Counted from the first letter of the stretch, positions 17,779 to 34,436 are shown. The stretch is 64,000 nt of DNA from Escherichia coli (GCF_048403405.1 NZ_CP183129.1), one strand, 5' to 3'. The notes: generated from the sequence alone by a model not told the origin. Numbers and translations are program-made.

Positions 17779-17800
17779 GGTCACTCCCTTTGTGACACCT

Positions 17801-17880
17801 ATAAAAAAGGCGCTTCCCCATGCCGAGTAGCGCCTTTTTAATCAAGCATTTAGCTAACCTGAATTAGTTCATGCCGTATT
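17801..17880. repeat. attL: 80 bp direct repeat copy carrying a duplicate of the fis 3' end and terminator hairpin
   Basis: ataaaaaaggcgcttccccatgccgagtagcgcctttttaatcaagcatttagctaacctgaattagttcatgccgtatt, identical to 33086-33165. Confidence 0.9.
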
Positions 17881-18007
17881 ATCAAAACCTATGTTTCTTA
17901 CAGTTTGTCATGGTTCGTTAGTGTTTATATAACTTATTGAATAAAATGATTAATGTTGTTTCTTTAGTTTACCTTTGTTCATTTCTGTTCATAGGGTAAT
18001 ATTAAAG

Positions 18008-18029
18008 TGTGCAGTCAGTGGTGCAGTCA
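18008..18029 (+). repeat. Candidate integrase arm-type site (left copy); internal tandem GTGCAGTCAG x2
   Basis: tgtgcagtcagtggtgcagtca also present at 33059-33080; sits 27 bp upstream of the int start codon. Confidence 0.55.
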
Positions 18030-18055
18030 GTTTTCAATATGAATTAAGGTTTTCT

Positions 18056-19279
18056 ATGGCTGGAGGAACGAACAAATTAAGCGATACATCGTTGCGTAAG
18101 ATGCTGGGGAGGGAAATCGATAGAGATAGATTTTATGCTGACGGTGATGGATTGAGTATCAAGGTGTCAAAAATTGGCGTTCTTACTTGGTATTTCTCTT
18201 TCCGGATTGGTGGGCGTGAATCGTATTCACAGCGTGTTAAGCTTGGAAACTACCCGGATCTTTCTCTGAAAGCTGCGCGCGAGAAACGTGAACAGTGTCG
18301 AGCATGGCTTGCTGAAGGTAAAAATCCAAAGCATCGGTTAAATGTGGCAATACATGAAACACTCAAACCAGTGACGGTAAAAGAGGCTCTGGATTACTGG
18401 ATCAGAGAATACGCCGTTTACAAGCGCACGAATGTTGATAAACACATTGAGCAACTGAGGAAGCATATTTTCCCCTATATAGGTGATTATCCGTTATCAA
18501 TGTGCGAAACCCGGCATTGGCTGGAGTGTTTCGCTAGAGTAAGGAATGACGCTCCAGTGGCAGCTGGTTATTTGCTGCAGATGTGTAAGCAGGCTCTGAA
18601 GTTTTGCCGCGTACATCGTTATGCGGTTAGCAATGCTCTGGATGACCTGACTATCGATGATGTTGGTAGAAAACAGAATAAGCGCGATAGGGAACACAGC
18701 AGTCAAGAGTTAGCAGATATTTGGCAGGAATGTTCAGGTAAGAAATTTAAACCATACTATTCATCGTTGTTGCGTCTATTGGTGGTGTTTGGATGTCGAA
18801 CCCAGGAGCTTCGGTTGTCACGTATTACAGAGTGGGATTTAAAGGATTGGATCTGGACAGTGCCTAAAGAACACAGCAAAGGCGGAGAGAAGATATTGCG
18901 CCCTATTCCAGTGGTAATACGCCCATTCATCCAACAGCTTATAGAGCAACACAAAAACTCAGGTCTTTTGTTGGGTGAAATAAAGAAACCAGAAGCTGTC
19001 AGCCAATGGGGGAGGATGATATATAAGCGTCTGGGGCATATTGAATCGTGGACACTTCACGACCTGCGCAGGACGTTTGCTACCACACTAAATAACATGG
19101 GGGTTGCACCACATGTTGTTGAACAGCTTCTCGGTCACACATTAGGTGGTGTAATGGCCATATACAATCGTAGCCAGTACTTACCAGAAAAACTAGACGC
19201 TCTAAATAAATGGATGGAACGGCTTGAGGTTATTTCTGGTCAGTATTCAAATGTAAAAATATTGAAGGTAGCGAAATGA
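18056..19279 (+). CDS. int: Tyrosine integrase (P4-like, N-terminal arm-binding domain)
   Basis: 407 aa from MAGGTNKLSD with RBS aagg; C-terminal catalytic residues in HDLRRTFAT and GHTLGGVMAIYNRSQY. Confidence 0.9.
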   Translation: MAGGTNKLSDTSLRKMLGREIDRDRFYADGDGLSIKVSKIGVLTWYFSFRIGGRESYSQRVKLGNYPDLSLKAAREKREQCRAWLAEGKNPKHRLNVAIHETLKPVTVKEALDYWIREYAVYKRTNVDKHIEQLRKHIFPYIGDYPLSMCETRHWLECFARVRNDAPVAAGYLLQMCKQALKFCRVHRYAVSNALDDLTIDDVGRKQNKRDREHSSQELADIWQECSGKKFKPYYSSLLRLLVVFGCRTQELRLSRITEWDLKDWIWTVPKEHSKGGEKILRPIPVVIRPFIQQLIEQHKNSGLLLGEIKKPEAVSQWGRMIYKRLGHIESWTLHDLRRTFATTLNNMGVAPHVVEQLLGHTLGGVMAIYNRSQYLPEKLDALNKWMERLEVISGQYSNVKILKVAK

Positions 19280-20013
19280 AAAAGATAAGCATCCCTGAGC
19301 GTATATATTATCCATTGCCTGAAGCAGCAAAGAAGCTGGGATGTACGCTTAATGATATATATCATTTTGCTGCTATAGGTGCTTTGAATATTTCTGTTTA
19401 TTTTCCAAACTGTCATCCATGTAAATCGCTAGTTATACCAAAATCATTAGTTGAAAATATTGATGTTGATTCAGGTGGGATGTTGCAAGGGGATCGCTGG
19501 GTAATTACAGGGATGAAGCCTGTTGGTAGCGATTTTGAATGGGTAAATTATTTTGGTGTGGCTTCTTATCTTGCAAAGAATTTTTGCGGTTTCTTCTATC
19601 TAAATCGGGAAAGTTTTTCTGAACTTGAATTTATTGGCAATGATGCAAGGATAGTATCATCTTTTTTTTCAACTCGTCCTGAATCAGAAAACTGGGAATG
19701 TCAAATTATGAGTGATGGGGCTATTGAGATCGACAGAAGGTTTTTATGTGTAATGGCTAAGGATTTGGAGCATATCAAAGATGTTGGAACCATGCCTGGA
19801 AGAAAAATGGGAGAATCGCCAAAAACTCTTGCGAAGAAAGCTGAGTTGATCCCTGCATTAATCAAACTAATTCCAGAAATGGATGATATAGATATTGGAA
19901 CTGCTCCAGTTGCTAAAGTGATCGCTGTTTTAGAGGCTGCGGCAGCGATGAAAGGGGTGTTTCTTCCCGCAACAGATAAGAATACGTGGGCTAAATACTT
20001 AGGGCGAACGTGA
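19276..20013 (+). CDS. Hypothetical accessory protein, AT-rich, between int and alpA
   Basis: 245 aa ORF whose start overlaps the int stop (ATGA); no motif I recognise; Ala-rich C-terminus. Confidence 0.55.
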   Translation: MKKISIPERIYYPLPEAAKKLGCTLNDIYHFAAIGALNISVYFPNCHPCKSLVIPKSLVENIDVDSGGMLQGDRWVITGMKPVGSDFEWVNYFGVASYLAKNFCGFFYLNRESFSELEFIGNDARIVSSFFSTRPESENWECQIMSDGAIEIDRRFLCVMAKDLEHIKDVGTMPGRKMGESPKTLAKKAELIPALIKLIPEMDDIDIGTAPVAKVIAVLEAAAAMKGVFLPATDKNTWAKYLGRT

Positions 20014-20102
20014 TATCACATATAAAATATGTGATATCACCTAAATATTCTAAGCATATTATCAATATGCTCTCGAACGATAATAAACGAGGGCATATCC
20101 AT

Positions 20103-20324
20103 ATGAGCAAAGTTAAATCATCGCAAGACCAATTTGATCGCATCATTCGTGAGGAGGAATGCCGACGCCTTACCGGTATTTGCCGAACGACGCGTTATAT
20201 GATGGAAAGGAAAGGGGTGTTTCCAGCCCGTCGTCAGTTGGGGGCTCGTTCTGTCGGTTGGTTGCTGTCTGAGGTTAATGATTGGCTTGAACGTCAACCC
20301 AAAGCACAACTGAAATCGGCGTAA
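20103..20324 (+). CDS. alpA: AlpA-family transcriptional regulator (excisionase-like HTH)
   Basis: 73 aa from MSKVKSSQDQ with RBS gaggg; RLTGICRTTRYMMERKGVFPARRQLGARSVGWLLSEVNDWL matches the AlpA family pattern. Confidence 0.8.
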   Translation: MSKVKSSQDQFDRIIREEECRRLTGICRTTRYMMERKGVFPARRQLGARSVGWLLSEVNDWLERQPKAQLKSA

Positions 20325-20673
20325 GGTGAGTTATGGTATATAAAACAAAGGCGACCGGGGGCGGTCGCCAATGGATACACACTAAACTTGAACGCATCAC
20401 CAACAATGCCACATTTGCGGCTGGTGGGCAATGTGATCAGTCAGATTTGGTTCGTTCCAAGGTTTGCAACGAGAGCTTTTTCCTGTGCTCTTTAAGGAAT
20501 TTCTCAAGAGCAAACGAACAAGGTGCGAATCTTTCTGATTCATGTTCATGCGCTATATTTTTGCGTCGTCTCTTACGAGTTGGTGATGGTGTTTTGGTTG
20601 ATTCTGTGTCGCTCATGGTGCTGTCCTGTAAAGCAATGCGCCTGCGTTCCTCAAACTATGGCGCTGATAGTGG

Positions 20674-20979
20674 CTATTCCTGCCCTTTGACCTTGCGTCG
20701 CTGGAGTTCTTCACGCGCGACGGTGACGAGTTGCCCGATCTCCTCGGCGGCTTTGACTCCGATTTTTTCAACCTGCGCTAGGGCATCGAGCGAAGAAACC
20801 AGGAGGTTTTCTCCGCTTCCTTCTGCCTGGCGGCGGGCGATTTCACCGCGCATGGCGGTTACTATGAATCCGGCGTTGCTTTCACCGTCCAGTTTTACGG
20901 ATTCCATGCCTTCAATAACATCATGCGGGATCCGAGCTGTCAGTGATTGTGATTTTGCGTTTTTTGAACCTGTAGCCAT
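20674..20979 (-). CDS. Putative small DNA-binding regulator, possibly ribbon-helix-helix
   Basis: 101 aa from MATGSKNAKS with strong RBS gagga; LTARIPHDVIEGMESVKLD resembles an RHH strand-helix; divergent from the downstream module. Confidence 0.5.
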   Translation of the reverse strand: MATGSKNAKSQSLTARIPHDVIEGMESVKLDGESNAGFIVTAMRGEIARRQAEGSGENLLVSSLDALAQVEKIGVKAAEEIGQLVTVAREELQRRKVKGQE

Positions 20980-20994
20980 CTGTAATCCTCTCAA

Positions 20995-21175
20995 TGAAAG
21001 TGTAAGACAATATACACATAAAAAGTCTTACATAAAAGCATTGACATGTAAGCCACCTATAAATAAAGTTACTTACACCTTGTTAATGCAAGGTGCAGAA
21101 ACGACGAAACCCCGCACTGTAGGAGCAGTAACGGGGCTTCTAACCACCAACGATAGCAAGATTATCGAGGCAGCT
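20995..21175. promoter_or_regulatory. Divergent promoter region with an array of TGTAAG/CTTACA half-sites
   Basis: TGTAAG at 21001 and 21047, CTTACA at 21027 and 21072, forming two inverted-repeat pairs; TTGACA at 21041. Confidence 0.45.
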
Positions 21176-21379
21176 ATGAGAAATCATACCATACACCCGC
21201 AAGGGCGGGACTCGTACAACCTGAATAAATACATCTGGCGTTTTATCGCCCTGAGCACCGCACAACCGCGCGTGATTCACATCGTGGCCACCAGCGAACA
21301 GGAAGCACGCCAGCAATCCCCGGCTGGCTGCGTGATGGTATTCGCCGCCCGCATTCGTCAGGGGGGGTGCCATGCCTGA
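21176..21379 (+). CDS. Small hypothetical protein (67 aa)
   Basis: ATG at 21176 preceded by RBS gagg; retained portion of the 348-aa track ORF, which is otherwise antisense to the regulator gene. Confidence 0.4.
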   Translation: MRNHTIHPQGRDSYNLNKYIWRFIALSTAQPRVIHIVATSEQEARQQSPAGCVMVFAARIRQGGCHA

Positions 21380-21692
21380 TATGTCAAATTACCAGTACCT
21401 GATTAATCCGCATTTTAACTGTGAGCATGATATTGCTAAAAAGGTTTATTCCGCTGCGGATGGGGCTACTGACAATATATCAATGGCTGTTGCGTCAATT
21501 GGTAGCCTGATGTGGCATGCGTCAGAAAATGAGGAATATGACGCAAAGGCCATGCGCATTGATATGGGTAATATCGGTTTGTTACTGGCAATGCTTGGAC
21601 ATTTTGATATTTCGTTACGGTGCACCATTGAAAATGCCACAGATGCATTAAATGCCATAAAGAAAGCGAATACTGATTCAAATCGGGGATAA
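21372..21692 (+). CDS. Hypothetical protein (106 aa)
   Basis: ORF in the replication module, co-directional with primase; no recognisable motif. Confidence 0.5.
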   Translation: MPDMSNYQYLINPHFNCEHDIAKKVYSAADGATDNISMAVASIGSLMWHASENEEYDAKAMRIDMGNIGLLLAMLGHFDISLRCTIENATDALNAIKKANTDSNRG

Positions 21693-21698
21693 ATAATC

Positions 21699-21998
21699 AT
21701 GAGAACATATTTATCTGGCTTGACTGCCAGCGGTTATGCACACCCTAAAATTATCCCCGGCGCTATTTATCTGGATAAGAACGGTAACAGAGTAACGGTA
21801 AAAGAACTGATGTTTGACCGTGTTTATTTTATTCGTGATGGCTATTCATTTCATAGTTCGCTGAACGTGGAGATCTTTATTTGCAGATTCCGGCGGGAAA
21901 TCCCGCTTTCCAGAAATAACCATGTGTCATGTATGGATGTTGATAAAAAACTACAGGAACTGAAAAACATGATTGCCGCGTGGAGAGAGCAGAAATGA
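21699..21998 (+). CDS. Hypothetical protein (99 aa)
   Basis: ORF whose stop overlaps the primase start (ATGA coupling). Confidence 0.5.
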   Translation: MRTYLSGLTASGYAHPKIIPGAIYLDKNGNRVTVKELMFDRVYFIRDGYSFHSSLNVEIFICRFRREIPLSRNNHVSCMDVDKKLQELKNMIAAWREQK

Positions 21999-23812
21999 AA
22001 AAAGCGCCAAATTTAAAACACCAGCCGCGTGACAAAATGACGGAAGTCATCATTTTTGCGGGTAGTGATGCGTGGGCACATGCGAAGCAGTGGCAGGAAC
22101 AGGACGGGCGACTGGCAGGCGATAACGTGCCACCTGTCTGGCTTGGAGAGCAACAACTTGCCGAACTGGACAACCTGCAAATTGTACCGGACGGACGCTA
22201 TCGCGTGCGTCTCTATCAGGCGGGGTTATTGCGTCCGGGGCTTGTTAATACCATCGGGCAGAAACTGGCAGCGGCAGGTGTCAGGGATGCTGATTATTAC
22301 CCTGAAGGAATGCACAGCCAGAAACGGGAGAACTGGCGCGAATATCTGGAACGTGAGCGGGGAGAGCTGGCGGAAAAGAAAAAGGTAGTTGAACTGCCTG
22401 TAAAGAAAAAAGAGCGGGTAAAAGACGATAACGCTTCATCACTGGCGCTTAACCAGATGGGAGCAAGTCAACGCGGCGAAGTTCTCCTGGCACATTATGG
22501 CGGTGAACTGGCGATTCATGCCGACTCTGACACTGTTCACCATTACAACGGCGTTGTATGGGAGCCAGTACAGGATAAAGAATTACAGCGAGCTATGGCG
22601 CAGATTTTCATTGATGCGGAGATCAGCTATTCGCAGAACGCCATTAAATCGGCGGTCGATACCATGAAGTTAAGTTTGCCTGTAATGGGGAATACAGCCC
22701 GTAACCTGATTGGATTCAGTAACGGGGTATTTGATACCAGAACAGGTAATTTTCGGGAGCATAACAAAAACGACTGGTTGTTAATTGCCAGTGAATTACC
22801 TTTCAGCCCACCAGCAGAGGGGGAAACGCTGGCAACACATGCGCCGAATTTCTGGAAGTGGTTACGCCGTTCGGTGGCTGAGAATGACCGCAAGGCGGAT
22901 CGCGTACTGGCGGCATTATTCATGGTGCTGGCGAACCGGTACGACTGGCAGTTATTCATTGAGGTAACAGGTCCAGGGGGAAGTGGTAAAAGCGTGATGG
23001 CGGAGATTTGCACCATGCTGGCGGGTAAGGCTAATACAGTATCAGCAAGCATGAAGGCGCTGGAAGATGCAAGGGAACGTGCGTTAGTGGTTGGCTTTTC
23101 TCTGATTATCATGCCGGATATGACCCGCTACGCTGGTGATGGGGCAGGGATTAAGGCCATTACAGGCGGTGACAAGGTGGCAATTGACCCGAAACACAAA
23201 GCTCCCTACTCAACGCGTATTCCGGCAGTAGTGCTGGCGGTTAACAATAACGCCATGTCATTCAGTGACCGCAGCGGGGGGATCTCACGTCGTCGGGTGA
23301 TATTCAATTTTTCGGAAGTTGTACCGGAGAACGAACGTGATCCGATGCTGGCGGAAAAAATAGAAGGTGAGCTGGCGGTAGTGATTCGCCATCTGCTTAC
23401 ACGGTTTGCTAACCAGGACGAAGCCAGACGCCTGTTATATGAGCAGCAGAAATCTGAAGAAGCACTGGCGATAAAGCGAGAGGGGGATTCGCTGGTGGAC
23501 TTCTGCGGCTATCTCATGGCGTCGGTAATGTGTGATGGCCTGTTAGTGGGTAATGCTGAAATTGTGCCATTCAGCCCGCGCAGATATCTCTATCATGCCT
23601 ATCTGGCTTATATGAGGGCACATGGGTTTGGTAAACCTGTAACACTGACGCGCTTCGGTAAAGATATGCCGGGGGCAATGGCGGAATATGGCAGGGAGTA
23701 TATGAAACGGAAAACGAAGCACGGTTTGCGTTCAAACGTGACACTGACGGAGGAATCAGAAGACTGGATGCCATCATGTGTATCGGTCACTAATGACGAT
23801 AGCAAAAATTAA
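21995..23812 (+). CDS. Primase-helicase of the phage/plasmid P4-alpha type (PICI pri-rep)
   Basis: About 605 aa; Walker A GPGGSGKS in the C-terminal half; followed directly by the iteron array. Confidence 0.8.
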   Translation: MKKAPNLKHQPRDKMTEVIIFAGSDAWAHAKQWQEQDGRLAGDNVPPVWLGEQQLAELDNLQIVPDGRYRVRLYQAGLLRPGLVNTIGQKLAAAGVRDADYYPEGMHSQKRENWREYLERERGELAEKKKVVELPVKKKERVKDDNASSLALNQMGASQRGEVLLAHYGGELAIHADSDTVHHYNGVVWEPVQDKELQRAMAQIFIDAEISYSQNAIKSAVDTMKLSLPVMGNTARNLIGFSNGVFDTRTGNFREHNKNDWLLIASELPFSPPAEGETLATHAPNFWKWLRRSVAENDRKADRVLAALFMVLANRYDWQLFIEVTGPGGSGKSVMAEICTMLAGKANTVSASMKALEDARERALVVGFSLIIMPDMTRYAGDGAGIKAITGGDKVAIDPKHKAPYSTRIPAVVLAVNNNAMSFSDRSGGISRRRVIFNFSEVVPENERDPMLAEKIEGELAVVIRHLLTRFANQDEARRLLYEQQKSEEALAIKREGDSLVDFCGYLMASVMCDGLLVGNAEIVPFSPRRYLYHAYLAYMRAHGFGKPVTLTRFGKDMPGAMAEYGREYMKRKTKHGLRSNVTLTEESEDWMPSCVSVTNDDSKN

Positions 23813-23824
23813 ACTTATGGAATA

Positions 23825-24049
23825 ACTGTTCACCACTGTTCACCCTGTCATAAATATCTTTTATATCAGTATATTATAGGGTTAACAGTTATTTATGAAC
23901 TGTTCACCAAACTATTCACTGTTCACCTTTTTGATTGTTTATTGAGCTTCAAGGGTGAACAGTGGTGAACAGTTGGTGAATAGTTTTTGTGAAACTGTTC
24001 ACCCCTTAACCTTATGAATTAAAAGATAAAATATCAAAAGGTGAACAGG
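23825..24049. repeat. Candidate origin of replication: array of about 9 ACTGTTCACC / GGTGAACAGT iterons with AT-rich spacers
   Basis: Direct copies at 23825, 23835, 23899, 23918, 23994; inverted copies at 23954, 23964, 24040; degenerate copies at 23909 and 23975; immediately 3' of the primase gene. Confidence 0.75.
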
Positions 24050-24196
24050 TGAAGGGTTAAAACGCAAAAATTTTAATTTACTGCTGTGAGATAAAGACTA
24101 TGACAGTAAAGCACACAAAAACACGCGCTTGATTTGACCGAATACTGGTTAAAAATGACTACAAATTAGATAAATTAGATAAAATAGGAAGAAATA

Positions 24197-24457
24197 ATGC
24201 CGATTCTGACGCATGAAATAAACAATTATTTTGATCAATTCGGACTTCATGATATTGCTTCAATGCCTACCACTCAGTACCGTCAGGCCCTTGCAAATGG
24301 TGGTTTACTGTGGATTGATCATCATGATTTTATTCGTAGCACGCTATCAGATGAAATCCTTGCAACAAATCAAGAGCAGGTTAATGTTTTGATTGAGCAT
24401 TTGCAGGTTTTAAGGAAAAAAATGCCACTACCTCCTAATTGGATGAGTGAGAAATGA
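24197..24457 (+). CDS. Hypothetical protein (86 aa)
   Basis: ATG at 24197 with RBS aggaag; convergent with the two-gene operon. Confidence 0.55.
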   Translation: MPILTHEINNYFDQFGLHDIASMPTTQYRQALANGGLLWIDHHDFIRSTLSDEILATNQEQVNVLIEHLQVLRKKMPLPPNWMSEK

Positions 24458-24459
24458 AT

Positions 24460-24490
24460 TATATGGCCTGGCTCTTTGCCAGGCCATATA
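24460..24490. terminator. Bidirectional terminator: perfect 13 bp inverted repeat between convergent stop codons
   Basis: tatatggcctggc-tctttg-ccaggccatata located exactly between the stops at 24455-24457 (+) and 24492-24494 (-). Confidence 0.75.
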
Positions 24491-24491
24491 C

Positions 24492-25001
24492 TCAAAGCAT
24501 TGTTAACAAGGCGGACGCACCAGCACCAACGAGACTGGCTACCGTACTATTATTTAGTAAATCCTTAAGCAAATTTTTTGCCTGAGGATCTTGTGATTGA
24601 GAAACTTTTTCAACAAGTTCAGTTATGCTGAGATTTACAATAAGATTGTTATGCTCACCGAGTTGAACCTGTGTACCGGATATGTTACCAATGTTAAATG
24701 TATTTTGGCTAGATTGTTTTGGTTTATGTTCATTAGCAGTCAGATTCTCGACTTTTAATGTAAGCATGTGAGGGTGATTAGTACCAACATTGAGTGTACC
24801 TCCTGGTAAAAATGACATATCAATTACTTTTAATATTATTTCCCCCTTCCCTAGTTTTTGAGTGATTTCATCTCCAATATTAATATCTGGTTCTTCAGTA
24901 TAAGGGATTAGCACTTTTTTTTCAGCTGAGTTTCTTTTCCCCTTGTATTCAACTCCTGCGATTGTGAATTTTTCTGGATATGCCATGACGTTAAGATCCA
25001 T
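24492..25001 (-). CDS. Candidate system gene B: 169-aa protein with hydrophobic Gly/Ala-rich C-terminal tail
   Basis: ATG (rc of 24999-25001) with RBS gaggag 7 nt upstream; 27 bp after gene A; C-terminus STVASLVGAGASALLTML; shares a C-terminal module with gene A. Confidence 0.7.
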   Translation of the reverse strand: MDLNVMAYPEKFTIAGVEYKGKRNSAEKKVLIPYTEEPDINIGDEITQKLGKGEIILKVIDMSFLPGGTLNVGTNHPHMLTLKVENLTANEHKPKQSSQNTFNIGNISGTQVQLGEHNNLIVNLSITELVEKVSQSQDPQAKNLLKDLLNNSTVASLVGAGASALLTML

Positions 25002-25030
25002 TATGTTGCTCCTCGTGATCGCTTTTGCGT

Positions 25031-25807
25031 TTAACTAGTAGATTTGAAAGTGTATTTTGTCTGTGTGTTAAGGTTTGATATTAGAGCTTCATAGTTTTCT
25101 TTACTCAGTAAGTTTTTTGAGTAGGCCTTCTTAAGAAGGTTTTTTGAGAGAGTAATAATTTCTTTTTCACCAGTTGATGCAATTTTTGAGAAGAACTCAG
25201 AGAGCTCTTGTATATTAATATTGTTATTTGTACCAAGTTGTACGTATTGGCTATTTACAGTAGCTATGTTGAATATGTTTTGTTTTGGATGCGTTTTTTT
25301 TAGCTTTTCAATTTCAGCATGTTCTATGATTTTTTGAGAGATACTTTCAATATAACCACTAACGTCTTTTTTTTCTGGGAAGGAAAACCCATCACCTCTT
25401 AATATTTTATCTGTTTCGGCCATTTCATAGTAAAGCCTGCGAATCATCACAAGTAATAGTAATTTAGCCTCCTCGATTGACTCCTCTATTGAGAATTGAC
25501 ATTCAATTGCTAACGCGGAGGTCTGCTCTAAAACAATTTCTGAGTTATTTTCAATGTAAGGATTGATAAAACCATTCCAAAAAATTTGAACGGGAGTACC
25601 TTTAAATGCCAAACCTTGATAGCATATTTCTGTTCCATCATATGCAGTAACTTTCATGGGGGGGCCTGCATTGAAAAATCGCCATCTATGAATCAGTTTG
25701 GTTAATCTTTCGTCAATCTCCCGAACTAATTTATAAGTCCTTTTGAACAATGGGGATGGTCGCATCCCAGGAACAGCAAGAATTTCTTTTGTCACTTGAA
25801 TCTCCAT
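25031..25807 (-). CDS. Candidate system gene A: 258-aa protein, no recognisable motifs
   Basis: First gene of the two-gene minus-strand operon; Lys/Asn/Ile-rich, AT-rich coding sequence; segment KQNIFNIATVNSQYVQLGTNNNINIQELSEFF is paralogous to gene B. Confidence 0.7.
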   Translation of the reverse strand: MEIQVTKEILAVPGMRPSPLFKRTYKLVREIDERLTKLIHRWRFFNAGPPMKVTAYDGTEICYQGLAFKGTPVQIFWNGFINPYIENNSEIVLEQTSALAIECQFSIEESIEEAKLLLLVMIRRLYYEMAETDKILRGDGFSFPEKKDVSGYIESISQKIIEHAEIEKLKKTHPKQNIFNIATVNSQYVQLGTNNNINIQELSEFFSKIASTGEKEIITLSKNLLKKAYSKNLLSKENYEALISNLNTQTKYTFKSTS

Positions 25808-26054
25808 AGTTTATCAGCATTTTTGTAAATTATTTGTGTGTTAACATTCAAGACTGTTCGTAACAAAAATACCTTATTTACATCAATTTTTTGATCCATA
25901 TCTTAAATAGTGGCACTCAGACGTGAGCCGCCACTGTTGCCGTCCGATCCCCTGCGCGATGCCGGGTTGATCTGCGAGATGCCGAGAGTGTCGGGCGGCG
26001 CTCCCTCCGTGTTGGTTTCACGTCCTGAATCTTAACCAATACGAGAAAACCTTC

Positions 26055-27224
26055 ATGAAGAAATTAATCGAGCTCCGCCAGCAAAAAAACGCCCTGAAAA
26101 ACCAGATGCGATCCCTGCTGGAAAAAGCCGACAGTGAAAACCGCAGCCTGAACGATGACGAGGGCAAACAGTTTGATGAACTGCGTGCAAAAGCTGATTC
26201 CCTCGATACAGACATTTCCCGCCTCGAGTCTGTGGCTGATGAAGAACGCAGCAAGCCAGGAACGGGCATCCAGAAAGTATCATCTGATGAATTGCGTAAC
26301 TACATCGTAACCGGAGATGTGCGATCTCTGTCCACCAGCACTGACAGCGGCAGGGATGGCGGATATACCGTAATTCCTGAGCTTGATCGCGAAGTCATGC
26401 GCCAGCTACAGGATGACAGTGTTATGCGCGTGATCGCGACCGTGAAGACTGCAAAATCAAATGAGTTTCAGAAACTGGTTTCCACTGGCGGCGCAACTGT
26501 AGGACGAGGCACAGAAGGCAGCGCACGCAGTGAAACCAACACCCCGAAAATTGAACGCGTAACCATCAAGCTGAACCCGATCTACGCCTACCCGAAAACC
26601 ACGCAGGAAATCCTAGATTTTTCAGAGGTGGATATTCTGGGCTGGTTATCCTCCGAAATTGCCGACACGTTCGCCAGCACCGAAGAGGATGATTTTGTTA
26701 ATGGCAACGGTAACGGCAAGCCGAAAGGCTTCATGGCTTACACCCGTGCGGCGACCAGTGACAAAACCCGCGCTTTTGGCACCATTGAAAAAATGGTAGC
26801 GGCAAGTGGAACCGCCATTACAGCGGACGAACTGATCGACATTCTCTACAAGCTGAAAGCGAAATACCGCAAAAATGCCGTCTGGGTGATGAACTCGGGC
26901 ACGGCAGGGACACTACAGAAGCTGAAAAATGAGAACGGCGATTATATCTGGCGCGACAGCCTTAAAGAAGGTGCGCCGGATATGTTGCTTGGTCGTCCTG
27001 TTTACTGCCTGGAGTCCATGCCGGACATCGGCGCAGGAAAAGCACCGCTAGCGGTTGGCGATTTCAGTCGTGGTTATTTCATCGTTGATCATGTAACAGG
27101 GATTCGCACCCGACCGGACAACATTACTGAACCCGGATTCTACAAGGTCCACACGGATAAATATCTGGGCGGTGGTGTGGTGGATTCAAACGCCATCAAA
27201 ATTCTGGAAATGAAAGCTGGCTAG
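26055..27224 (+). CDS. Major capsid protein, HK97 fold, with N-terminal coiled-coil delta/scaffold domain
   Basis: 389 aa; coiled-coil N-terminus then conserved MCP blocks (LLGRPVYCLESMP, GDFSRGYFIVDHVTGIRTRPD, NAIKILEMKAG). Confidence 0.85.
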   Translation: MKKLIELRQQKNALKNQMRSLLEKADSENRSLNDDEGKQFDELRAKADSLDTDISRLESVADEERSKPGTGIQKVSSDELRNYIVTGDVRSLSTSTDSGRDGGYTVIPELDREVMRQLQDDSVMRVIATVKTAKSNEFQKLVSTGGATVGRGTEGSARSETNTPKIERVTIKLNPIYAYPKTTQEILDFSEVDILGWLSSEIADTFASTEEDDFVNGNGNGKPKGFMAYTRAATSDKTRAFGTIEKMVAASGTAITADELIDILYKLKAKYRKNAVWVMNSGTAGTLQKLKNENGDYIWRDSLKEGAPDMLLGRPVYCLESMPDIGAGKAPLAVGDFSRGYFIVDHVTGIRTRPDNITEPGFYKVHTDKYLGGGVVDSNAIKILEMKAG

Positions 27225-27278
27225 TCATGAGTAAGGAGGAGGCTGCGGCCTCCTTTTTCAGCTTTATGGAGTACACCG

Positions 27279-27839
27279 ATGAAAAACACCGATTTTGAAA
27301 TCCGCACATCTGAACTGACCGCCAGCAATAAAAAGCTGGTGGGGTATGCCGTTCGCTGGAACAGCCTTTCAGAAATTATCTGGGACGAATTCCGCGAACA
27401 GTTCACGCCGGGGGCTTTTGCTGACTATCTGGCGGCGGGTAATGATGTGCGCTGCCTGTATGAGCATGACTATACCCAACTGCTGGGGCGCACCAAATCC
27501 GGCACTCTGGTACTGACTGAGGATAACACCGGGTTACGTTTTGAACTGACACCGCCGGATACCCAGCTTGGAAAAGATGTGCTTACGCTGGTGGAGCGTG
27601 GCGACATTACAGGAATGAGCTTTGGTTTTCGCGCATTATGCGAGGAGTGGAGTATCGCGCAAAAACCGTATTTGCGTACCGTAACCGCCGCTGAACTCCG
27701 TGAAATCACAATAACGTCGATGCCTGCTTATCCAGAATCTGGCGTGGAGATTGCCCACCGTTCGTTGTTTGCACAGCACCCTGAATTATGCCCGACAGGA
27801 AATAATCGTCATCGCTGGTCTGAGCTGGCGGGGTTGTGA
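27279..27839 (+). CDS. Prohead maturation protease, HK97 family
   Basis: 186 aa; pattern FEIR...GYAVRWN...GAF...LYEHD...LGRT...GMSFGFR...MPAYPE typical of HK97 prohead protease. Confidence 0.8.
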   Translation: MKNTDFEIRTSELTASNKKLVGYAVRWNSLSEIIWDEFREQFTPGAFADYLAAGNDVRCLYEHDYTQLLGRTKSGTLVLTEDNTGLRFELTPPDTQLGKDVLTLVERGDITGMSFGFRALCEEWSIAQKPYLRTVTAAELREITITSMPAYPESGVEIAHRSLFAQHPELCPTGNNRHRWSELAGL

Positions 27840-27840
27840 T

Positions 27841-29055
27841 ATGTGGTGGCCTTTTAGTCGTAAAAAAAGCGAGCAGCGTAACCTGTCCATTGATGATTTT
27901 CTGGCGCTGTCCGGCGTACCGAATACCGGATCCGGAGAATATGTTTCTGCCGGGACGGCTGAATCATTGCCTGCAGTGATGAATGCGGTTTCTGTCATCG
28001 CTGAGGCGGTGGCCACGATGCCGTGTTATCTGTATCTGGTACGTAATGACAAGGGCAGGGAGGCGCGGGAATGGCTGGACAGTCACCCGGTAGATATTCT
28101 GCTGAATGAGCAGCCTAATTCGTGCCAGACACCTTACCAGTTTAAACGCACAATGATGCGTCACTGCCTGCTGAACGGTAACGCCTATGCGGTTATTGAG
28201 TGGGGGCAGGACGGGCAGCCAAAATCACTTCATCCTTATGCGCCGGGGTGTGTTGTACCGGAACGCACAGGCGCACACAAATACCGCTATACCATCACCG
28301 AACCCTATACAGGAACGGTGCGCACGTATTTACAGGAAGAAGTTCTGCATCTCCGCTATGCCTCGGATGATGGCTTTCTGGGGCGCTCCCCCGTCACGAT
28401 TTGCCGTGAGGCACTTGGGCTTGGCCTTGCTCAACAGCGCCACGGAGCCAGCATTATGAAAGATGGCATGATGGCGGCAGGGATTATCACGTCAGGCGAA
28501 TGGCTGGACGGCGTGAAAGGTAAACAGGCATTGGATGCTCTGGAACGCTACAAGGGGGCGAAAAATGCCGGAAAAACGCCAATCCTTGAAGGGGGCATGG
28601 ATTACAGGCAACTGGGAATGAGTAACCAGGATGCGGAATGGCTGGCCTCCCGTCGCTTCTCCATTGAAGACATCGCCCGCATGTTCAACGTATCGCCTAT
28701 TTTTCTGCAGGAATACAGCAACAGCACCTACAGCAATTTCAGCGAGGCAAGCCGCGCGTTTCTGACCATGACAATGCGCCCGTGGCTGGCGAACTTCGAA
28801 CAGCAAATCAAGGCCGCTTTGCTGGTGGCTTCTCCCGTACCTGGTACCCGTTATCTGGTTGAGTTTGATTCAGCCGATTTATTACGCGCCACACCCACCG
28901 AACGTTATGCCACGTATGAGAAAGGGATTAAGAACGGGATCATGAATCCGAACGAAGCCCGTGAGCGTGAGGGTATGCCGCCGCGTGAAGGTGGTGATGA
29001 GTTCAGCCAGGCATGGAAACAGACTGTGGAAATTAAAGGGAGAAAAGATGAGTGA
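27841..29055 (+). CDS. Portal protein, HK97 family
   Basis: 404 aa from MWWPFSRKK, starting 2 nt after the protease stop; the track ORF's upstream extension overlaps the protease. Confidence 0.8.
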   Translation: MWWPFSRKKSEQRNLSIDDFLALSGVPNTGSGEYVSAGTAESLPAVMNAVSVIAEAVATMPCYLYLVRNDKGREAREWLDSHPVDILLNEQPNSCQTPYQFKRTMMRHCLLNGNAYAVIEWGQDGQPKSLHPYAPGCVVPERTGAHKYRYTITEPYTGTVRTYLQEEVLHLRYASDDGFLGRSPVTICREALGLGLAQQRHGASIMKDGMMAAGIITSGEWLDGVKGKQALDALERYKGAKNAGKTPILEGGMDYRQLGMSNQDAEWLASRRFSIEDIARMFNVSPIFLQEYSNSTYSNFSEASRAFLTMTMRPWLANFEQQIKAALLVASPVPGTRYLVEFDSADLLRATPTERYATYEKGIKNGIMNPNEAREREGMPPREGGDEFSQAWKQTVEIKGRKDE

Positions 29056-29350
29056 AGCCAGAATTACACCTGATGAAGTCAGGGCACATCTTCGACTTGA
29101 TGATGATTTATCCGGTGAAGGCGAACTTCTGAAAATGTATACCGATGCGGCGCTGGAAGCCTGCCAGAAGCATATCGGGAAACGTTTTGAAGACGGGCTG
29201 GAATTTACCCCGGCAATGCGTGTTGGTTGCCTGATGTACATCGCTTTCCTGTACGAGAACCGGGAAGCGGTTTCACCAGTGGAGCACTCGGAACTGCCTA
29301 TGGCTATTTCTGCGCTCTGGTCAGTTTATCGTGACGTAGGGGTGTACTGA
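29048..29350 (+). CDS. Head-tail connector (gp6-like) protein
   Basis: 100 aa, MSEARITPDEVRAHLRLDDDLSGEGELLKMYTDAALEACQKHIGKRF; start overlaps the portal stop. Confidence 0.7.
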   Translation: MSEARITPDEVRAHLRLDDDLSGEGELLKMYTDAALEACQKHIGKRFEDGLEFTPAMRVGCLMYIAFLYENREAVSPVEHSELPMAISALWSVYRDVGVY

Positions 29351-29790
29351 TGCCGTGGCAACCATTAAGGCGATGCACTGAGCCTGGCTGTAATAAGCGC
29401 GTGAAGTCCGGCAAGTGTGAAGAGCACAGGCGGGCTGCATGGCGTGCAGAGGATGCCAGACGGGGACACCGCCGCGCGCGCGGGTATTCCCGACAGTGGG
29501 ACAAATACCGCGCCCTGTACCTGAGCAAAAACCCGTTATGCGTGCGTTGTCTGGCTAAGGGGATTTATACGCCAGCTCTTGTGGTGGATCACATCATTCC
29601 CATCAATGGCGGCGGTGATGTTCTCTTCTGGCCTGAGTGGAATCACCAGGCATTGTGCCAGACGTGCCACAACCGTAAGACGACACGGGAAGATCCAGCC
29701 ACGAAAGCAAACCGTAAAGCGGGCATGTATCACGAGCAGGAAGAACGGGCGGCACACCGTAACGACTGGATGTATGGCGATGATGACTGA
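29350..29790 (+). CDS. HNH endonuclease (cos-packaging accessory nuclease)
   Basis: 146 aa; Cys-rich HNH core CVRCLAKG...VVDHIIPINGGGD...NHQALCQTCHNRKT. Confidence 0.85.
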   Translation: MPWQPLRRCTEPGCNKRVKSGKCEEHRRAAWRAEDARRGHRRARGYSRQWDKYRALYLSKNPLCVRCLAKGIYTPALVVDHIIPINGGGDVLFWPEWNHQALCQTCHNRKTTREDPATKANRKAGMYHEQEERAAHRNDWMYGDDD

Positions 29791-29960
29791 ACAGGAGCAA
29801 ACCAGGCTGATACGTGGACTGATAAGGCAGCGTGACACATGGAAGACACAGGAGACAGAGCACAAAGCCAACAGGACAGGGCGCACAAAACTCACCACAG
29901 CGAAGCGATTAACCGACCGTGACCGCGAGGTCATGGAATGTTTTCGCAATCGCTGGTGAG

Positions 29961-30026
29961 GCCGTCAGAGGGGGTGGGGGTGGTTTTCAGGACGAAACCG
30001 TCCCTGCCGGACACCGACCGCCCCCT
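29961..30026. other. Candidate cos/packaging site between HNH and terS
   Basis: G-tract gagggggtgggggtgg and complementary C-tract ccgccccctc flanking palindrome ggacgaaaccgtcc, in the 290 bp gap upstream of terS. Confidence 0.35.
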
Positions 30027-30078
30027 CAAATTTTTGTGCACGGTAATTTTTTTGAAAATAATTGGGCGAAAAAAGAAC

Positions 30079-30435
30079 ATGGCAAGACCACCAAAAGCCC
30101 CCGCTTACCTGGATGAAATCGCGGTCAGGCAGTGGAAGGAAAAATCGCGCCAGCTTTCCGGGCGGGAAGACCTTACCCCCGCCGACTGGAGCAATCTGGA
30201 ACTGTATTGTGTTAACTACTCCATATACCGCAAAGCCGTCGAAGACCTTGCGACGCGCGGGTTCAGCATTGTTAACAGTCAGGGCAGCGAGAGCAGAAAC
30301 CCCGCACTGAGCGCAAAGGCTGACGCAGAAAGAATAATGATCAAAATGGCTTCTTTGCTGGGTTTTGACCCGGTAAGCCGTCGCAGAAATCCACCGGAAA
30401 CAGAGGAAGAGGACGAACTTGACCGCCTGGCATGA
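30079..30435 (+). CDS. Terminase small subunit (P27-family-like)
   Basis: 118 aa from MARPPKAPAYLDEIAVRQWKEK; directly upstream of and overlapping terL; acidic C-terminus. Confidence 0.75.
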   Translation: MARPPKAPAYLDEIAVRQWKEKSRQLSGREDLTPADWSNLELYCVNYSIYRKAVEDLATRGFSIVNSQGSESRNPALSAKADAERIMIKMASLLGFDPVSRRRNPPETEEEDELDRLA

Positions 30436-32080
30436 GTACGCAGAAGGCGTAAAAAACGGCAAAATTACGGCCTGTAAACGACTGAAACAGGCCGTTAAAC
30501 GGTATTTTTCTGACCTTGAAAACTCCCTTTACACGTTCGATCCGGAGGTCGTGGAGCGGTTTATTGCCTTTTCCCGGGTGTGTCCGCACGTAAAAGGCGC
30601 AATGCGCGGTAGTCCCATTGAACTGGAGCCGTGGCAGCAGTTCGCCTTTGCCTGCATCCTGGGCTTTAAGGTTAAGGCCACCGGACGGCGCAAATACACC
30701 AGCGCATTCATTGAAGTACCGCGAAAAAATGCCAAATCCACGGTCGCCGCTATCCTGGCTAACTGGTTTCTGGTTATGGAAAACGGGCAGCAGGATATTT
30801 ACACCGCCGCCGTGAGTCGTGATCAGGCGCGGATCGTGTTTGATGATGCGCGTCAGATGTGCCTTTTATCCCGACCGTTACGAAAGCGGGTAAATATTCA
30901 GGCACACAAGGTGATACACCCGAAAACTAACAGCCTGTTAAAGCCACTGGCAGCAAAAGCGGCAACCATTGAAGGTACAAATCCGAGTCTTGCCATTGTG
31001 GATGAATATCACCTGCACCCTGACAACGGGGTTTATTCCGCACTTGAGCTGGGGATGGGGGCGCGTCCGGAGGGGCTGTTATTTGCCATCACCACATCGG
31101 GGAGCAACGTTGTTTCAGCCTGTAAACAACACTATGACTATTGCTGTCAGATACTGGATGGTGAAGAGATGAACGAATCCATGTTCGTTCTGATTTACGA
31201 GCTGGATGATGAAAGCGAGGTTGACGATCCGGCCATGTGGATAAAGGCGAATCCAAATATCGATGTTTCCGTCGATCGTGAAAAACTGGCCTCAACCATC
31301 CAGAAAGCGCGGGGTATTCCGTCGCAGTGGGTGGAAATGCTCACCAAGCGATTCAATATCTGGTGTCAGGGGGCTACGCCGTGGATGGGTAACGGTGCAT
31401 GGGCGGAGTGCGCCGGAACGTTCGCGGAGGCGGATTTATACGGGCAGGAGTGCTACGCGGGACTGGACTTATCATCAACCAGCGATATTTCCAGCGTGTG
31501 CTATGCCTTTCCGGTCGGTAAAAAGATTATGCTGGTTTCCCGTCACTATCTGCCGGAATTTCAGCTACAGAACCCCGCCAATAAAAACCGCGCCATCTAT
31601 CGCCAGTGGGTAAAGGCGGGCTGGATACGCACAACACCGGGTGACTGCATTGATTATGACCGTATCCGTGATGACATCATGGCGGATGCAGAGAATTTCA
31701 ATATCAGGCTGGTGGGCTTCGATACATGGAACGCCACGCACCTGAGGACGCAGCTACAGGGGGCAGGATTTGAGGTGGAGCCGTTCCCGCAAACATACCT
31801 TCGTTTCAGTCCGGCGGCGAAATCGTTCGAAGTTTTTGTTAACCGGAAGGTGATTGTGCATCGTGGTGATCCGGTGCTGGCCTGGTCAATGAGTAATGTT
31901 GTGATGCAGAGTGACGCGAACGCCAATATCAAGCCGAACAAGAAAAAATCATCCAACAAGATAGACCCGAGCGTTGCGGCGCTGATGGCGTTTGGCACAT
32001 TCCAGGCAGAGCATGAGGAATTTGCATTTGATATGAGCGACAGCCACAAAGAGCGACTTGCGGCGTTTGATGGGGTATGA
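30419..32080 (+). CDS. Terminase large subunit
   Basis: 553 aa; ATPase N-terminal domain and nuclease C-terminal domain typical of TerL. Confidence 0.85.
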   Translation: MTAWHEYAEGVKNGKITACKRLKQAVKRYFSDLENSLYTFDPEVVERFIAFSRVCPHVKGAMRGSPIELEPWQQFAFACILGFKVKATGRRKYTSAFIEVPRKNAKSTVAAILANWFLVMENGQQDIYTAAVSRDQARIVFDDARQMCLLSRPLRKRVNIQAHKVIHPKTNSLLKPLAAKAATIEGTNPSLAIVDEYHLHPDNGVYSALELGMGARPEGLLFAITTSGSNVVSACKQHYDYCCQILDGEEMNESMFVLIYELDDESEVDDPAMWIKANPNIDVSVDREKLASTIQKARGIPSQWVEMLTKRFNIWCQGATPWMGNGAWAECAGTFAEADLYGQECYAGLDLSSTSDISSVCYAFPVGKKIMLVSRHYLPEFQLQNPANKNRAIYRQWVKAGWIRTTPGDCIDYDRIRDDIMADAENFNIRLVGFDTWNATHLRTQLQGAGFEVEPFPQTYLRFSPAAKSFEVFVNRKVIVHRGDPVLAWSMSNVVMQSDANANIKPNKKKSSNKIDPSVAALMAFGTFQAEHEEFAFDMSDSHKERLAAFDGV

Positions 32081-32367
32081 CGAGAATGACTGAAACTGAT
32101 CTACTAAAAATAATTCGCCGCATTACCGGAATCAGTCAGCAGCCTGACGAACAGGCTACACAGCCGGACAGCGTGATAGCCGAAAATTACGCGCGTGTGG
32201 TGGCTGAGGTGATGCGCCGTGACGGTATTGAGCTTAACGGCGTGGATATGCGCAACATACGAACCAGAGTCCTTGAGTTGCTGGCATACCGTCGCCGTTC
32301 TCAACAACGGAGGGAGAGCGCGAAAAATACTTACCAGTGGAAGAAGCCGGAACGACTGCGGCGGTAA
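32077..32367 (+). CDS. Hypothetical protein (96 aa), translationally coupled to terL
   Basis: ATGA overlap with the terL stop; basic C-terminus; possibly a head-completion protein. Confidence 0.5.
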   Translation: MTRMTETDLLKIIRRITGISQQPDEQATQPDSVIAENYARVVAEVMRRDGIELNGVDMRNIRTRVLELLAYRRRSQQRRESAKNTYQWKKPERLRR

Positions 32368-32408
32368 CTTGCTGATATTCCCGATAACGCAAAATTGCGT
32401 TGGCTGGC
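32366..32408 (+). repeat. Copy 1 of a 43 bp imperfect direct repeat in the right-end non-coding region, followed by palindrome TGCAAATTTGCA (32414-32425)
   Basis: taacttgctgatattcccgataacgcaaaattgcgttggctgg versus copy 2 at 32669-32711, about 35 of 43 identical by eye. Confidence 0.6.
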
Positions 32409-32668
32409 ATAGTGCAAATTTGCACGATGACCTAACCCATTGACTTTTCTTCAATCCTCAATTTTGAGGAGGCCGGAAGATAAAAAACTGTCAAAACTTG
32501 TCATGCAAAACGTTACCAGCACGGCTATTGATTTATTCGGCCCCTGCAACTGCTCCCAGAATGGTGGGGATCTGAAATCCGACCCTGAAAAAGTGCGCAA
32601 AAGTGGTACGCAAAAATTAGCGTCCAGCCACAGCCACCAGCTAGACAGAACGCCCAGAGCATTGTCAG

Positions 32669-32711
32669 TAACTGGTTGATATTCCCGACAGCCCCAAAAT
32701 GGGTTGGCTGG
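32669..32711 (+). repeat. Copy 2 of the 43 bp imperfect direct repeat, followed by palindrome TTGCAGATCTGCAA (32720-32733)
   Basis: taactggttgatattcccgacagccccaaaatgggttggctgg. Confidence 0.6.
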
Positions 32712-33058
32712 TGGGTGAGTTGCAGATCTGCAACTCGACCATGAAACTACGGAAACTACCCGTAGTTTGGGTAGTAAGAGTAACACCCAGATTCTGGGGC
32801 TTACTCGCGATACCCAAATAAAGGGTATCGGTGGACGAAATATTATTTCTCATATGTGAGCACCGAAGGCGGAATTCCGCCCTCGGTTATCTATCATGCA
32901 CAGGGAGAAGCAGGGCAAAACTCTTGCCATGGCGTCTTCCGGACCGCTCACCACACCGTTTTTATCCCCATTAAAAATGAAAAAACACATCACTGCGGAG
33001 ACATAACCACTGGCAGGTATCTATTCTATTTATTATTGTTCGGTTTCGTTCGTGCTTA

Positions 33059-33080
33059 TGTGCAGTCAGTGGTGCAGTCA
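33059..33080 (+). repeat. Candidate integrase arm-type site (right copy), 5 bp from attR
   Basis: tgtgcagtcagtggtgcagtca identical to 18008-18029. Confidence 0.55.
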
Positions 33081-33085
33081 TTTTA

Positions 33086-33165
33086 ATAAAAAAGGCGCTT
33101 CCCCATGCCGAGTAGCGCCTTTTTAATCAAGCATTTAGCTAACCTGAATTAGTTCATGCCGTATT
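33086..33165. repeat. attR: 80 bp direct repeat overlapping the last 17 nt of fis and its terminator
   Basis: Identical to 17801-17880; the fis stop codon (33149-33151) lies inside the repeat. Confidence 0.9.
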
Positions 33166-33445
33166 TTTTCAATTTTTTACGCAGCGTACCACGGTTGATG
33201 CCCATCATCAGCGCAGCACGGGTCTGGTTACCACGGGTGTATTGCATCACCATGTCCAACAGGGGCTGTTCTACTTCAGCCAGTACCAGCTCATAGAGGT
33301 CATTCACATCCTGACCGTTCAGTTGAGCAAAATAGTTCTTCAGTGCCTGTTTAACCGAGTCACGCAGGGGTTTTTGGGTTACCTGATCCTGAGAGTTAAC
33401 GGTAGAAACGGTCAGTACGTCAGAATTTACGCGTTGTTCGAACAT
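33149..33445 (-). CDS. fis: Nucleoid-associated protein / global regulator Fis
   Basis: 98 aa [39 protein letters not shown]...[17 protein letters not shown]. Confidence 0.97.
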
Positions 33446-33470
33446 AGTTCTGTCAGCTCTTTATTTCTGT

Positions 33471-34436
33471 TTACGCAAAATTTTCGAAGTATGCCTCCAA
33501 CGCCTCCAGCTGTTCGCTGGCATCCTCAATGGCGTTGAATGTGCGCCGAAACTGGTCATTTGGAGCGTGTTCCTGGAGATACCAGGAAACGTGTTTACGT
33601 GCAATTCGGTACCCTTTTGCCGGACCATAAAAGTCATGCAGTTCCCGAACGTGCGCGCAAAGCAAGCGCTTAACCTCTGCCAAAGGCAGCGGGGGCAGCA
33701 ACTCCCCAGTGTCCAGATAATGCTGGATTTCCCGAAAGATCCAGGGTCTTCCCTGAGCTGCGCGGCCTATCATCAGGGCATCCGCCCCTGTATAGTCGAG
33801 CACAGCTCTGGCTTTAAGCGGGTCAGTAATGTCGCCATTCGCGATAACCGGAATGGAAACTTTCTGCTTAACTGCCCGAATACTGTCGTACTCAGCTTCT
33901 CCATTGAACAAACAGGCGCGTGTACGGCCATGAATGGTCAGAGCCTGAATGCCACAGTCTTCAGCCAGTTGGGCAATCTCTTCGCAGTTACGGTGTTCCG
34001 GTGCCCAGCCGGTGCGAATCTTCAGGGTAACAGGAACGTCCACTGCATTGACGACCTCGGTAAGGATCGATTTAACGACATCCGGGTACTGCAAGAGGGC
34101 TGAACCTGCGAGCTTGCGATTCACTTTTTTAGCCGGGCAACCCATATTGATATCAATAATCTGGGCACCGCTTTCCACGTTAATACGTGCTGCATCTGCC
34201 ATTTCTTTCGGATCGCTACCAGCAATTTGCACGGTGCGAATACCGGGTTCATCAATGTGCACCATCCGTAAACGAGATTTGTCGCTTTCCCAAACCTGAG
34301 GGTTAGAAGACATCATCTCGGATACTGTCAATCCGGCTCCCATCTCGTAGCACAACGTCCGAAAAGGTCTGTCTGTAATGCCAGCCATGGGCGCTGCGAT
34401 CAGGCGATTTCTGAGCTGATATTGTCCGATGCGCAT
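33471..34436 (-). CDS. dusB: tRNA-dihydrouridine synthase B
   Basis: 321 aa; TIM-barrel Dus family; operon with fis. Confidence 0.93.

Follow-up and report, generated by a model that had tools for sequence, protein, structure and literature searches.

The prototype capsid-forming phage-inducible chromosomal island (cf-PICI) is EcCIEDL933 of Escherichia coli O157:H7 (Alqurainy et al., bioRxiv 10.1101/2022.09.08.507074; He et al., bioRxiv 10.1101/2025.02.11.637232), an element of 15.4-15.5 kb for which alpA dependence, the building of its own small capsids and dependence on a helper phage for tails only have been shown by mutagenesis and electron microscopy. Helper- and alpA-dependent induction, own small capsids and helper-tail-only dependence have been shown only for EcCIEDL933, EcCIGN02175 and KpCIDSM30104; across the family, packaging proteins are, by the authors' figure, ~50-90% identical (Alqurainy et al., bioRxiv 10.1101/2022.09.08.507074). 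Here we describe an island that separates yhdJ from fis in a 64 kb stretch of the E. coli chromosome (NZ_CP183129.1, assembly GCF_048403405.1; hereafter the window), and compare it with these elements. Its gene content, gene order, size and attachment site identify it, with a probability that we put at roughly 0.88, as a cf-PICI of the group known as 'fis PICIs'.

An earlier note on this DNA, made from the sequence alone, had proposed a cf-PICI-like satellite and left aside whether the 3' end of fis is a recognised attachment site. It is a documented PICI site: 2,642 fis PICIs were mapped there, then 923 more, giving ~3,500 in total, with an identity-block consensus, TACGGCATGAACTAA, that extends into the fis terminator (Mageeney et al. 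2023, PMC10111431). The same study cites an experiment in which a Klebsiella fis PICI was excised; for the 165,778 proteobacterial genomes that it surveyed, it reports no prophage at fis and tail signature proteins in none of the fis islands tested. Its authors placed the fis islands among the PICIs, noting a 'Late zone', but did not call them capsid-forming.

Boundaries and gene content of the fis island

The island is an insert of ~15.3 kb bounded by two 80-nt direct repeats that are 100% identical, with 15,285 nt from repeat start to repeat start. The right-hand repeat holds the final 17 nt of fis, stop codon included, the other 63 nt being the fis downstream spacer and rho-independent terminator; the element therefore brings along a stop codon and terminator for fis, and fis stays intact. 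As in the published consensus, the identity block at the fis terminus contains TACGGCATGAACTAA and reaches into the fis terminator, and crossover is presumed to have taken place within attL in TTAGTTCATGCCGTA (17864-17878). When the insert was taken out in silico and the flanks were fused at a single repeat, the resulting sequence was collinear with the yhdJ-fis junction of K-12 MG1655 over 1116 of 1116 nt (98.7% identity, 0 gaps). The 80-mer occurs exactly once in K-12, whose Fis protein is the same as that of the window. To the left of the island lie an rrn operon, yhdWXYZ, acrEF, acrS and yhdU, and to the right fis through degQ (99.997% identical to strain TUM1226). Both flanks are core chromosome, so that there is no adjoining prophage to provide tail or lysis genes in cis.

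Gene calls were taken from the RefSeq annotation of an identical copy, PHROGs, NCBIfam and Pfam, all of which agree on gene order (Table 1). An early region of PICI type, comprising integrase, AlpA-type regulator and primase/replicase, is followed by a packaging module that runs as one rightward operon from the major capsid protein (MCP) gene through a 93-aa open reading frame (ORF) and encodes the island's own capsid protein, protease, portal, connector, HNH endonuclease, TerS and TerL. The AlpA-type helix-turn-helix (HTH) protein is 64% identical over 50 aa to that of the O157 island, and ten copies of the CTGTTCACC iteron, with at most one mismatch each, are packed into 223 bp downstream of the replicase gene, the whole window holding 29 matches against 12.9 +/- 3.5 expected. 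None of the 20 island genes matches a tail, holin or lysis family in PHROGs. On each of these points, from the perfect 80 bp repeats and the broken K-12 yhdJ-fis contiguity to int, alpA, the P4-type primase, the iteron origin, the seven head and packaging genes and the want of tail and lysis functions, the analysis bears out what the earlier note had read from the sequence; a longer contiguous prophage holding the tail and lysis genes, which would have spoken against it, was looked for in the flanks, where only core genes were found.

Table 1. Features of the island and its flanking genes, in window coordinates (a dot marks features without strand)
Feature	Position	Strand	Basis or remark
yhdJ	16894-17778	-	left flank
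attL, 80-bp identity block	17801-17880	.	last 17 nt of fis and fis terminator
P' arm doubled motif GTGCAGTCAgtgGTGCAGTCA, period 12	18009-18029	+	~145 nt from core; same offset in the fis element of strain E3
Tyrosine integrase, 407 aa	18056-19279	+	RefSeq, PHROGs, NCBIfam
Hypothetical protein, 245 aa	19276-20013	+	start overlaps int stop
AlpA-type HTH excisionase/activator	20103-20324	+	phrog_2790, E = 2e-18
YlcI/YnfO family protein	20674-20979	-	strand opposite to early operon; RefSeq, PHROGs
Icd-like protein	21176-21379	+	NF033153, 71 bits; phrog_6196
Two small early genes: 106-aa hypothetical and DUF4222 protein	21372-21998	+	RefSeq, PHROGs
Primase/replicase (Pri-Rep), 605 aa; D5_N, DUF5906, Pox_D5	21995-23812	+	PHROGs, NCBIfam, Pfam
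Replication origin, ten CTGTTCACC iterons	23826-24048	.	both orientations, around AT-rich DNA
Hypothetical protein, 86 aa	24197-24457	+	phrog_1957
Cargo gene hyp169	24492-25001	-	N-terminal beta-barrel and 70-aa C-terminal module
Cargo gene hyp258	25031-25807 (RefSeq start 25795)	-	helical N-terminal domain and same C-terminal module
HK97-fold MCP	26055-27224	+	PHROGs; PDB 9GYI match
HK97-family prohead protease	27279-27839	+	PHROGs, NCBIfam
Portal protein	27841-29055	+	PHROGs
Head-tail connector, Ad1 type	29048-29350	+	phrog_40 (Ad1), E = 2e-28; TIGR01560, 71 bits against cut-off 24
HNH endonuclease (packaging accessory)	29350-29790	+	PHROGs
Small conserved ORF, 61 aa	29774-29959	+	phrog_3173; also in O157:H7 (EcCIEDL933-type) island
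Candidate cos site, G+C-rich HNH-terS intergenic region, 119 nt	29960-30078	.	inferred only
Small terminase TerS, P27 family	30079-30435	+	PHROGs, NCBIfam
Large terminase TerL	30419-32080	+	PHROGs
Conserved ORF, 93 aa	32086-32367	+	phrog_1561; 75% identical to O157:H7 island counterpart
Non-coding tail in which a 44-nt repeat occurs twice (32364-32407, 32668-32711)	32364-32711	.	just 3' of last packaging-operon gene
P arm doubled motif GTGCAGTCAgtgGTGCAGTCA	33060-33080	+	~89 nt from core
attR, second copy of 80-bp identity block	33086-33165	.	provides fis stop codon and terminator
fis	33149-33445	-	right flank

For comparison with the prototype, the island at roxA-phoQ in O157:H7 strain 86-24 was taken as the EcCIEDL933 equivalent. 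Length lies within the roughly 10-15 kb of cf-PICIs and close to the ~15.4 kb of EcCIEDL933, which has the same layout (int, alpA, Icd-like, DUF4222, Pri-Rep, cargo, MCP through TerL, small ORF) and likewise no tail or lysis genes. Protein comparison with a described cf-PICI, of the kind that the earlier note had recommended, placed nine packaging proteins at 54-93% identity to those of the O157:H7 island (TerL 93%, TerS 88%, HNH 84%, portal 81%, two small ORFs 75%, MCP 63%, protease 62%, connector 54%), close to the figure given for the family, and the MCP matches PDB entry 9GYI, the EcCIEDL933 capsid (He et al., bioRxiv 10.1101/2025.02.11.637232), at E = 8e-155. The two elements differ outside the packaging module: the O157 island sits at roxA-phoQ rather than fis, with integrases 54% identical; its replicase is a DUF927 protein, whereas that of the window's island is of D5_N/DUF5906 type, and the two align over no more than the first ~125 residues, at 74% identity; and its cargo is SSB and PerC in place of the gene pair that we call hyp169 and hyp258.

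Closer packaging relatives are found at other sites. In the island of strain SMS-3-5 (rcnR-thiM) the packaging proteins are 98-100% identical and the replication module is held in common; in ETEC4085, which lies inside a prophage terL, protease through TerL are 97-100% identical and the capsid protein has diverged to 71%. Both SMS-3-5 and the terL-embedded elements have other integrases, other attachment sites, and different or absent cargo. Closely related cf-PICIs sit inside terL of HK97-like prophages, where the gene is split into a TerL_ATPase and a TerL_nuclease fragment that flank the element, and these terL-inserted elements are helper-embedded capsid-forming satellites.

The element itself has already been catalogued. 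Eco4384.15.fis (CP010151.1/4722942-4738226) and Eco4068.15.fis (CP015834.1) are listed with an identical 80-nt attL/attR block (PMC10111431); the former, from strain D8, covers 100% of the query at 99.9% identity and the latter, from MS6198, 96% at 99.0%, and on these alignments both are the same element as the window's island. At least 80% of the element is present in 19 complete E. coli genomes, with the exact integrase protein on 586 public contigs and the exact capsid protein on 658. With family, life cycle, capsid structure, fis site and element coordinates in another strain all published, the island carries little weight as a discovery. The occupants of fis that were inspected were of three kinds only, all of them satellite-sized. 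In E. coli SUISSEKPC3NDM5 (NZ_CP083701.1, locus 17671-27156) fis holds a different island of ~9.8 kb, with int, a short HTH, a VirE-family protein, TerS and, adjoining fis, a 761-aa ORF annotated as a tail tape measure protein; it is a distinct satellite type using the same attachment site.

A packaging module without a head-closure gene

Co-linearity with the O157:H7 packaging genes is broken at one point. The head-closure gene, named the "head-tail adaptor" in the cf-PICI papers, is a 112-aa gene between portal and connector in the O157 island and in PEC148; in the window's island it is absent, the portal stop overlapping the connector start, and when two head-closure proteins of cf-PICIs were run by tblastn against the entire window the best E was 0.17. 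The gene inventory of the earlier note was right in every gene that it named, but overlooked this absence. Each packaging-module mutant of EcCIEDL933 lost transfer, with the exception of one hypothetical gene, so that a head-closure-less element could be transfer-deficient unless a helper gives the protein. Three further points count against our identification: the match to the P4-primase model TIGR01613 scores 95 bits, below the curated cut-off of 109; what is proposed on induction, on the size of the capsid, on the place of cos and on the helper is extrapolated by analogy with relatives; and a helper prophage elsewhere would lie beyond the scope of an analysis confined to the window.

The published SatelliteFinder model of cfPICIs has 11 core components and forbids tails and holins. 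Comparing gene annotations with that model gives the island 10 of the 11, with which it is still accepted, as 'Type B'. The gap could nevertheless mark a decayed, non-transmissible cf-PICI remnant, whose capsids fail to hold DNA or to accept tails and which is handed down as vertical baggage. One missing component in 11 and the near-uniform need for packaging genes in EcCIEDL933 would fit such a remnant, and truly decayed fis elements do exist: that of E. coli E3 (NZ_CP104536.1, locus 18185-27417) derives by deletion from a fis cf-PICI and is missing primase and capsid gene as well as the N-terminal portion of the protease gene. We consider decay unlikely here, since 10-of-11 'Type B' elements are the commonest cfPICI class of SatelliteFinder (459/969), and the contiguous portal-connector junction recurs in 142 of the 5,426 complete genomes of E. 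coli (the packaging lineage, in any form, is present in 533 genomes) at no fewer than three kinds of site, namely fis, rcnR-thiM in SMS-3-5, and the inside of prophage terL, as in ETEC4085. Pseudogenisation of the structural genes, named in the earlier note as grounds for rejecting its proposal, was looked for as well. All island ORFs are intact, and in a comparison with the diverged element of ETEC4085, which also has no head-closure gene, all seven packaging genes have dN/dS of 0.00-0.17 at silent-site differences of 0.08-1.35, values from which the packaging proteins appear to evolve under purifying selection. This pattern indicates that the head-closure-less variant is kept by selection and has moved between sites, which argues against a dead remnant.

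A head half left over from an HK97-like temperate phage by deletion of its tail and lysis genes would likewise place a full HK97-type head and packaging set beside an integrase, but is very improbable given the order of the early genes, which is that of Gram-negative PICIs (int pointing inward, AlpA, Icd-like, DUF4222, Pri-Rep, iteron origin), with no CI/Cro-type switch annotated and neither the tail and lysis modules nor the outward-facing int of a temperate prophage. Exact att sites and an exactly restored empty site leave no space for deleted phage DNA, no capsid protein from a true phage is more than 37% identical to the island MCP, and the survey cited above detected no tail signature proteins in the fis islands that it tested (PMC10111431). 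The early region of int, AlpA and Pri-Rep is also common to classical PICIs, and the P4-family C-terminal region of the primase/helicase, together with the Icd-like gene, recalls P4; a satellite of either kind would remodel capsids made by its helper. Such a satellite has next to no claim on an island with a capsid gene of its own, in which none of the 20 genes is assigned to Sid, Psu or Delta (PHROGs, NCBIfam) and no Rpp/Ppi-type gene is annotated; portal, connector and TerL are, moreover, forbidden or cfPICI-specific in the SatelliteFinder PICI model.

If the island is a functional cf-PICI, the head-closure protein may come from its helper. In cf-PICI modules that have the gene, its product is 50-63% identical to the protein of an HK97-like helper prophage, against only 32-37% for connector, portal and capsid; head closure is thus the most phage-like part of those modules, which makes its supply by a helper plausible for this element. 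Head-closure-less cf-PICIs may take the helper's head-closure protein besides its tails, and the variant poses the question whether such satellites need more from a helper than tails. The island offers a clean, intact example of this common 10-of-11 variant.

Attachment arms and a proposed life cycle

In the attP reconstructed from the two island ends, the doubled motif GTGCAGTCAgtgGTGCAGTCA lies ~89 nt before and again ~145 nt after the core TTAGTTCATGCCGTA. The fis element of strain E3 has this doubled motif at the same offsets, though its int is only 76% identical (nucleotide) and the surrounding arm sequence has drifted. The motif GTGCAGTCA is common to the window and E3; in another fis satellite, with a more distant integrase, the motif reads GTGTAACT and GTGTAACTAttgGTGTAACTA occupies the same places, the sequence of the arm motif thus varying with integrase type. 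Mageeney et al. (2023, PMC10111431) described a doubled arm motif for helper-embedded PICIs only, with a TGTATTGC core at -81 and +132, and stated that it was not found in fis PICI attPs; the window's fis island has a different doubled motif in similar geometry. This suggests that fis PICIs use an arm architecture of helper-embedded type with a motif of their own, and the doublets are probably arm-type binding sites for integrase (or for AlpA). An exact scan for the doubled motif, with one genome per species, found it only in Buttiauxella massiliensis and Enterobacter soli, so that this exact motif is narrow.

From these features and from the described relatives a life cycle can be proposed. 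As read from the sequence, the tyrosine integrase would have joined attP to the end of the fis coding sequence, in its last codons (core TACGGCATGAACTAA), with the doubled motifs of 12-bp period ~89 nt and ~145 nt to either side of the core being its likely arm sites. By analogy with relatives, the island would stay silent until a helper phage turns on alpA, whereupon AlpA would drive excision and early transcription; the P4-family primase/helicase would then copy the circle from the CTGTTCACC iteron origin, as gene and iterons in the sequence indicate. The island's capsid protein, protease and portal would build small capsids, of T=4 if EcCIEDL933 is a guide, into which its own HNH-TerS-TerL set, again judging from relatives, would pack DNA of unit length, with cos probably located in the HNH-terS spacer. 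That spacer has a mean column identity of 94% across four elements, the O157:H7 island included, well above the ~71% identity between the capsid-to-portal DNA of the O157:H7 island and that of the window, and analogy with HK97-type phages makes it a candidate. Completion would follow as in relatives, with the Ad1 connector added and then a helper-phage tail to give an infectious particle; as the element has no head-closure gene, we infer that this protein comes from the helper. The two minus-strand genes of low G+C content between the replication and packaging modules would ride along as cargo.

Cargo genes and minor features

Three cargo genes lie in a trough of 34-36% G+C between the replication and packaging modules. 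Two of them, hyp169 and hyp258, share a C-terminal region of 76 residues (BLASTP E = 1e-6), of which the core, F-N-I-x(6-7)-phi-Q-phi-G-x-x-N, is conserved in the two protein families alike and reads G-I-Q-V-G-N-N-N in some homologues. In hyp169 the module comprises the phi-Q-phi-G core, helices and a hydrophobic tail, and the tail is present in some hyp258 homologues also. The motif resembles the RHIM, PP and BASS3 amyloid motifs, which have the signature G-phi-Q-phi-G; in AlphaFold2 models the segment is disordered in hyp258 and forms weak, low-confidence strands in hyp169. The N-terminal beta-barrel of hyp169 has its best structural matches among phage head-closure/stopper proteins.

The pair sits in the position of the variable regions beside the packaging operon, where related elements carry variable cargo; such flanking regions are expected to carry genes for immune systems (He et al., bioRxiv 10.1101/2025.02.11.637232), and Bab/Agp provides a precedent for amyloid signalling in E. 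coli anti-phage defence. By analogy, hyp169/hyp258 might be a previously undescribed phage-interference or abortive-infection module acting by homotypic, possibly amyloid-like assembly, in which the barrel would sense phage connector complexes and the shared module would relay the signal through homotypic assembly to a membrane-active tail (cf. Bab/Agp); we regard this as a speculative and rather improbable reading. As a known defence system the pair found no significant match in PADLOC, nor any in Pfam, RHIM included, even at E <= 10. Nor is the shared module a widespread adaptor on diverse sensors or effectors: searched with its profile, 1.84 billion representatives yielded only 134 clusters, in which almost every full-length match was a protein of ~170-aa or of ~250-aa type, three proteins of great length giving only short, repeated partial matches, and no NLR-, TIR- or nuclease-containing architecture is indicated among the matches, which were not themselves scanned for domains. 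This narrow range of architectures weakens the analogy with amyloid signalling. As a conserved two-gene cassette, the pair is a candidate for screening for anti-phage activity.

Elsewhere in the early region, the 245-aa ORF that follows int has no match in PHROG, Pfam or PADLOC, and a 348-aa open frame (20333-21379, plus strand), which is absent from the RefSeq annotation and overlaps both the Icd-like gene and the YlcI/YnfO gene on the opposite strand, is unlikely to be a gene. An Rfam search of 17000-34000 gave no C4/isrK/P4-CI-type RNA and no other credible family, and the 44-nt repeat downstream of the packaging operon is not in Rfam either. A 39-nt copy of that repeat is 97% conserved in the O157:H7 island (fetched locus ~17730-17768). 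The non-coding tail as a whole (32368-33085) lacks broad conservation: the O157 island shares only this 39-nt unit, and SMS-3-5 a stretch of ~320 nt at 82% identity.

Among 50,697 phage records none contains most of the element. Those that come closer by capsid than the true phages are satellite-sized, namely LR881103.1 (vB_KppS-Ant, 16.5 kb) at 75% and OR544139.1 (Pasteurella phage Pmp8, 15.3 kb) at 61%, and both are probably cf-PICIs recovered from induced lysates.

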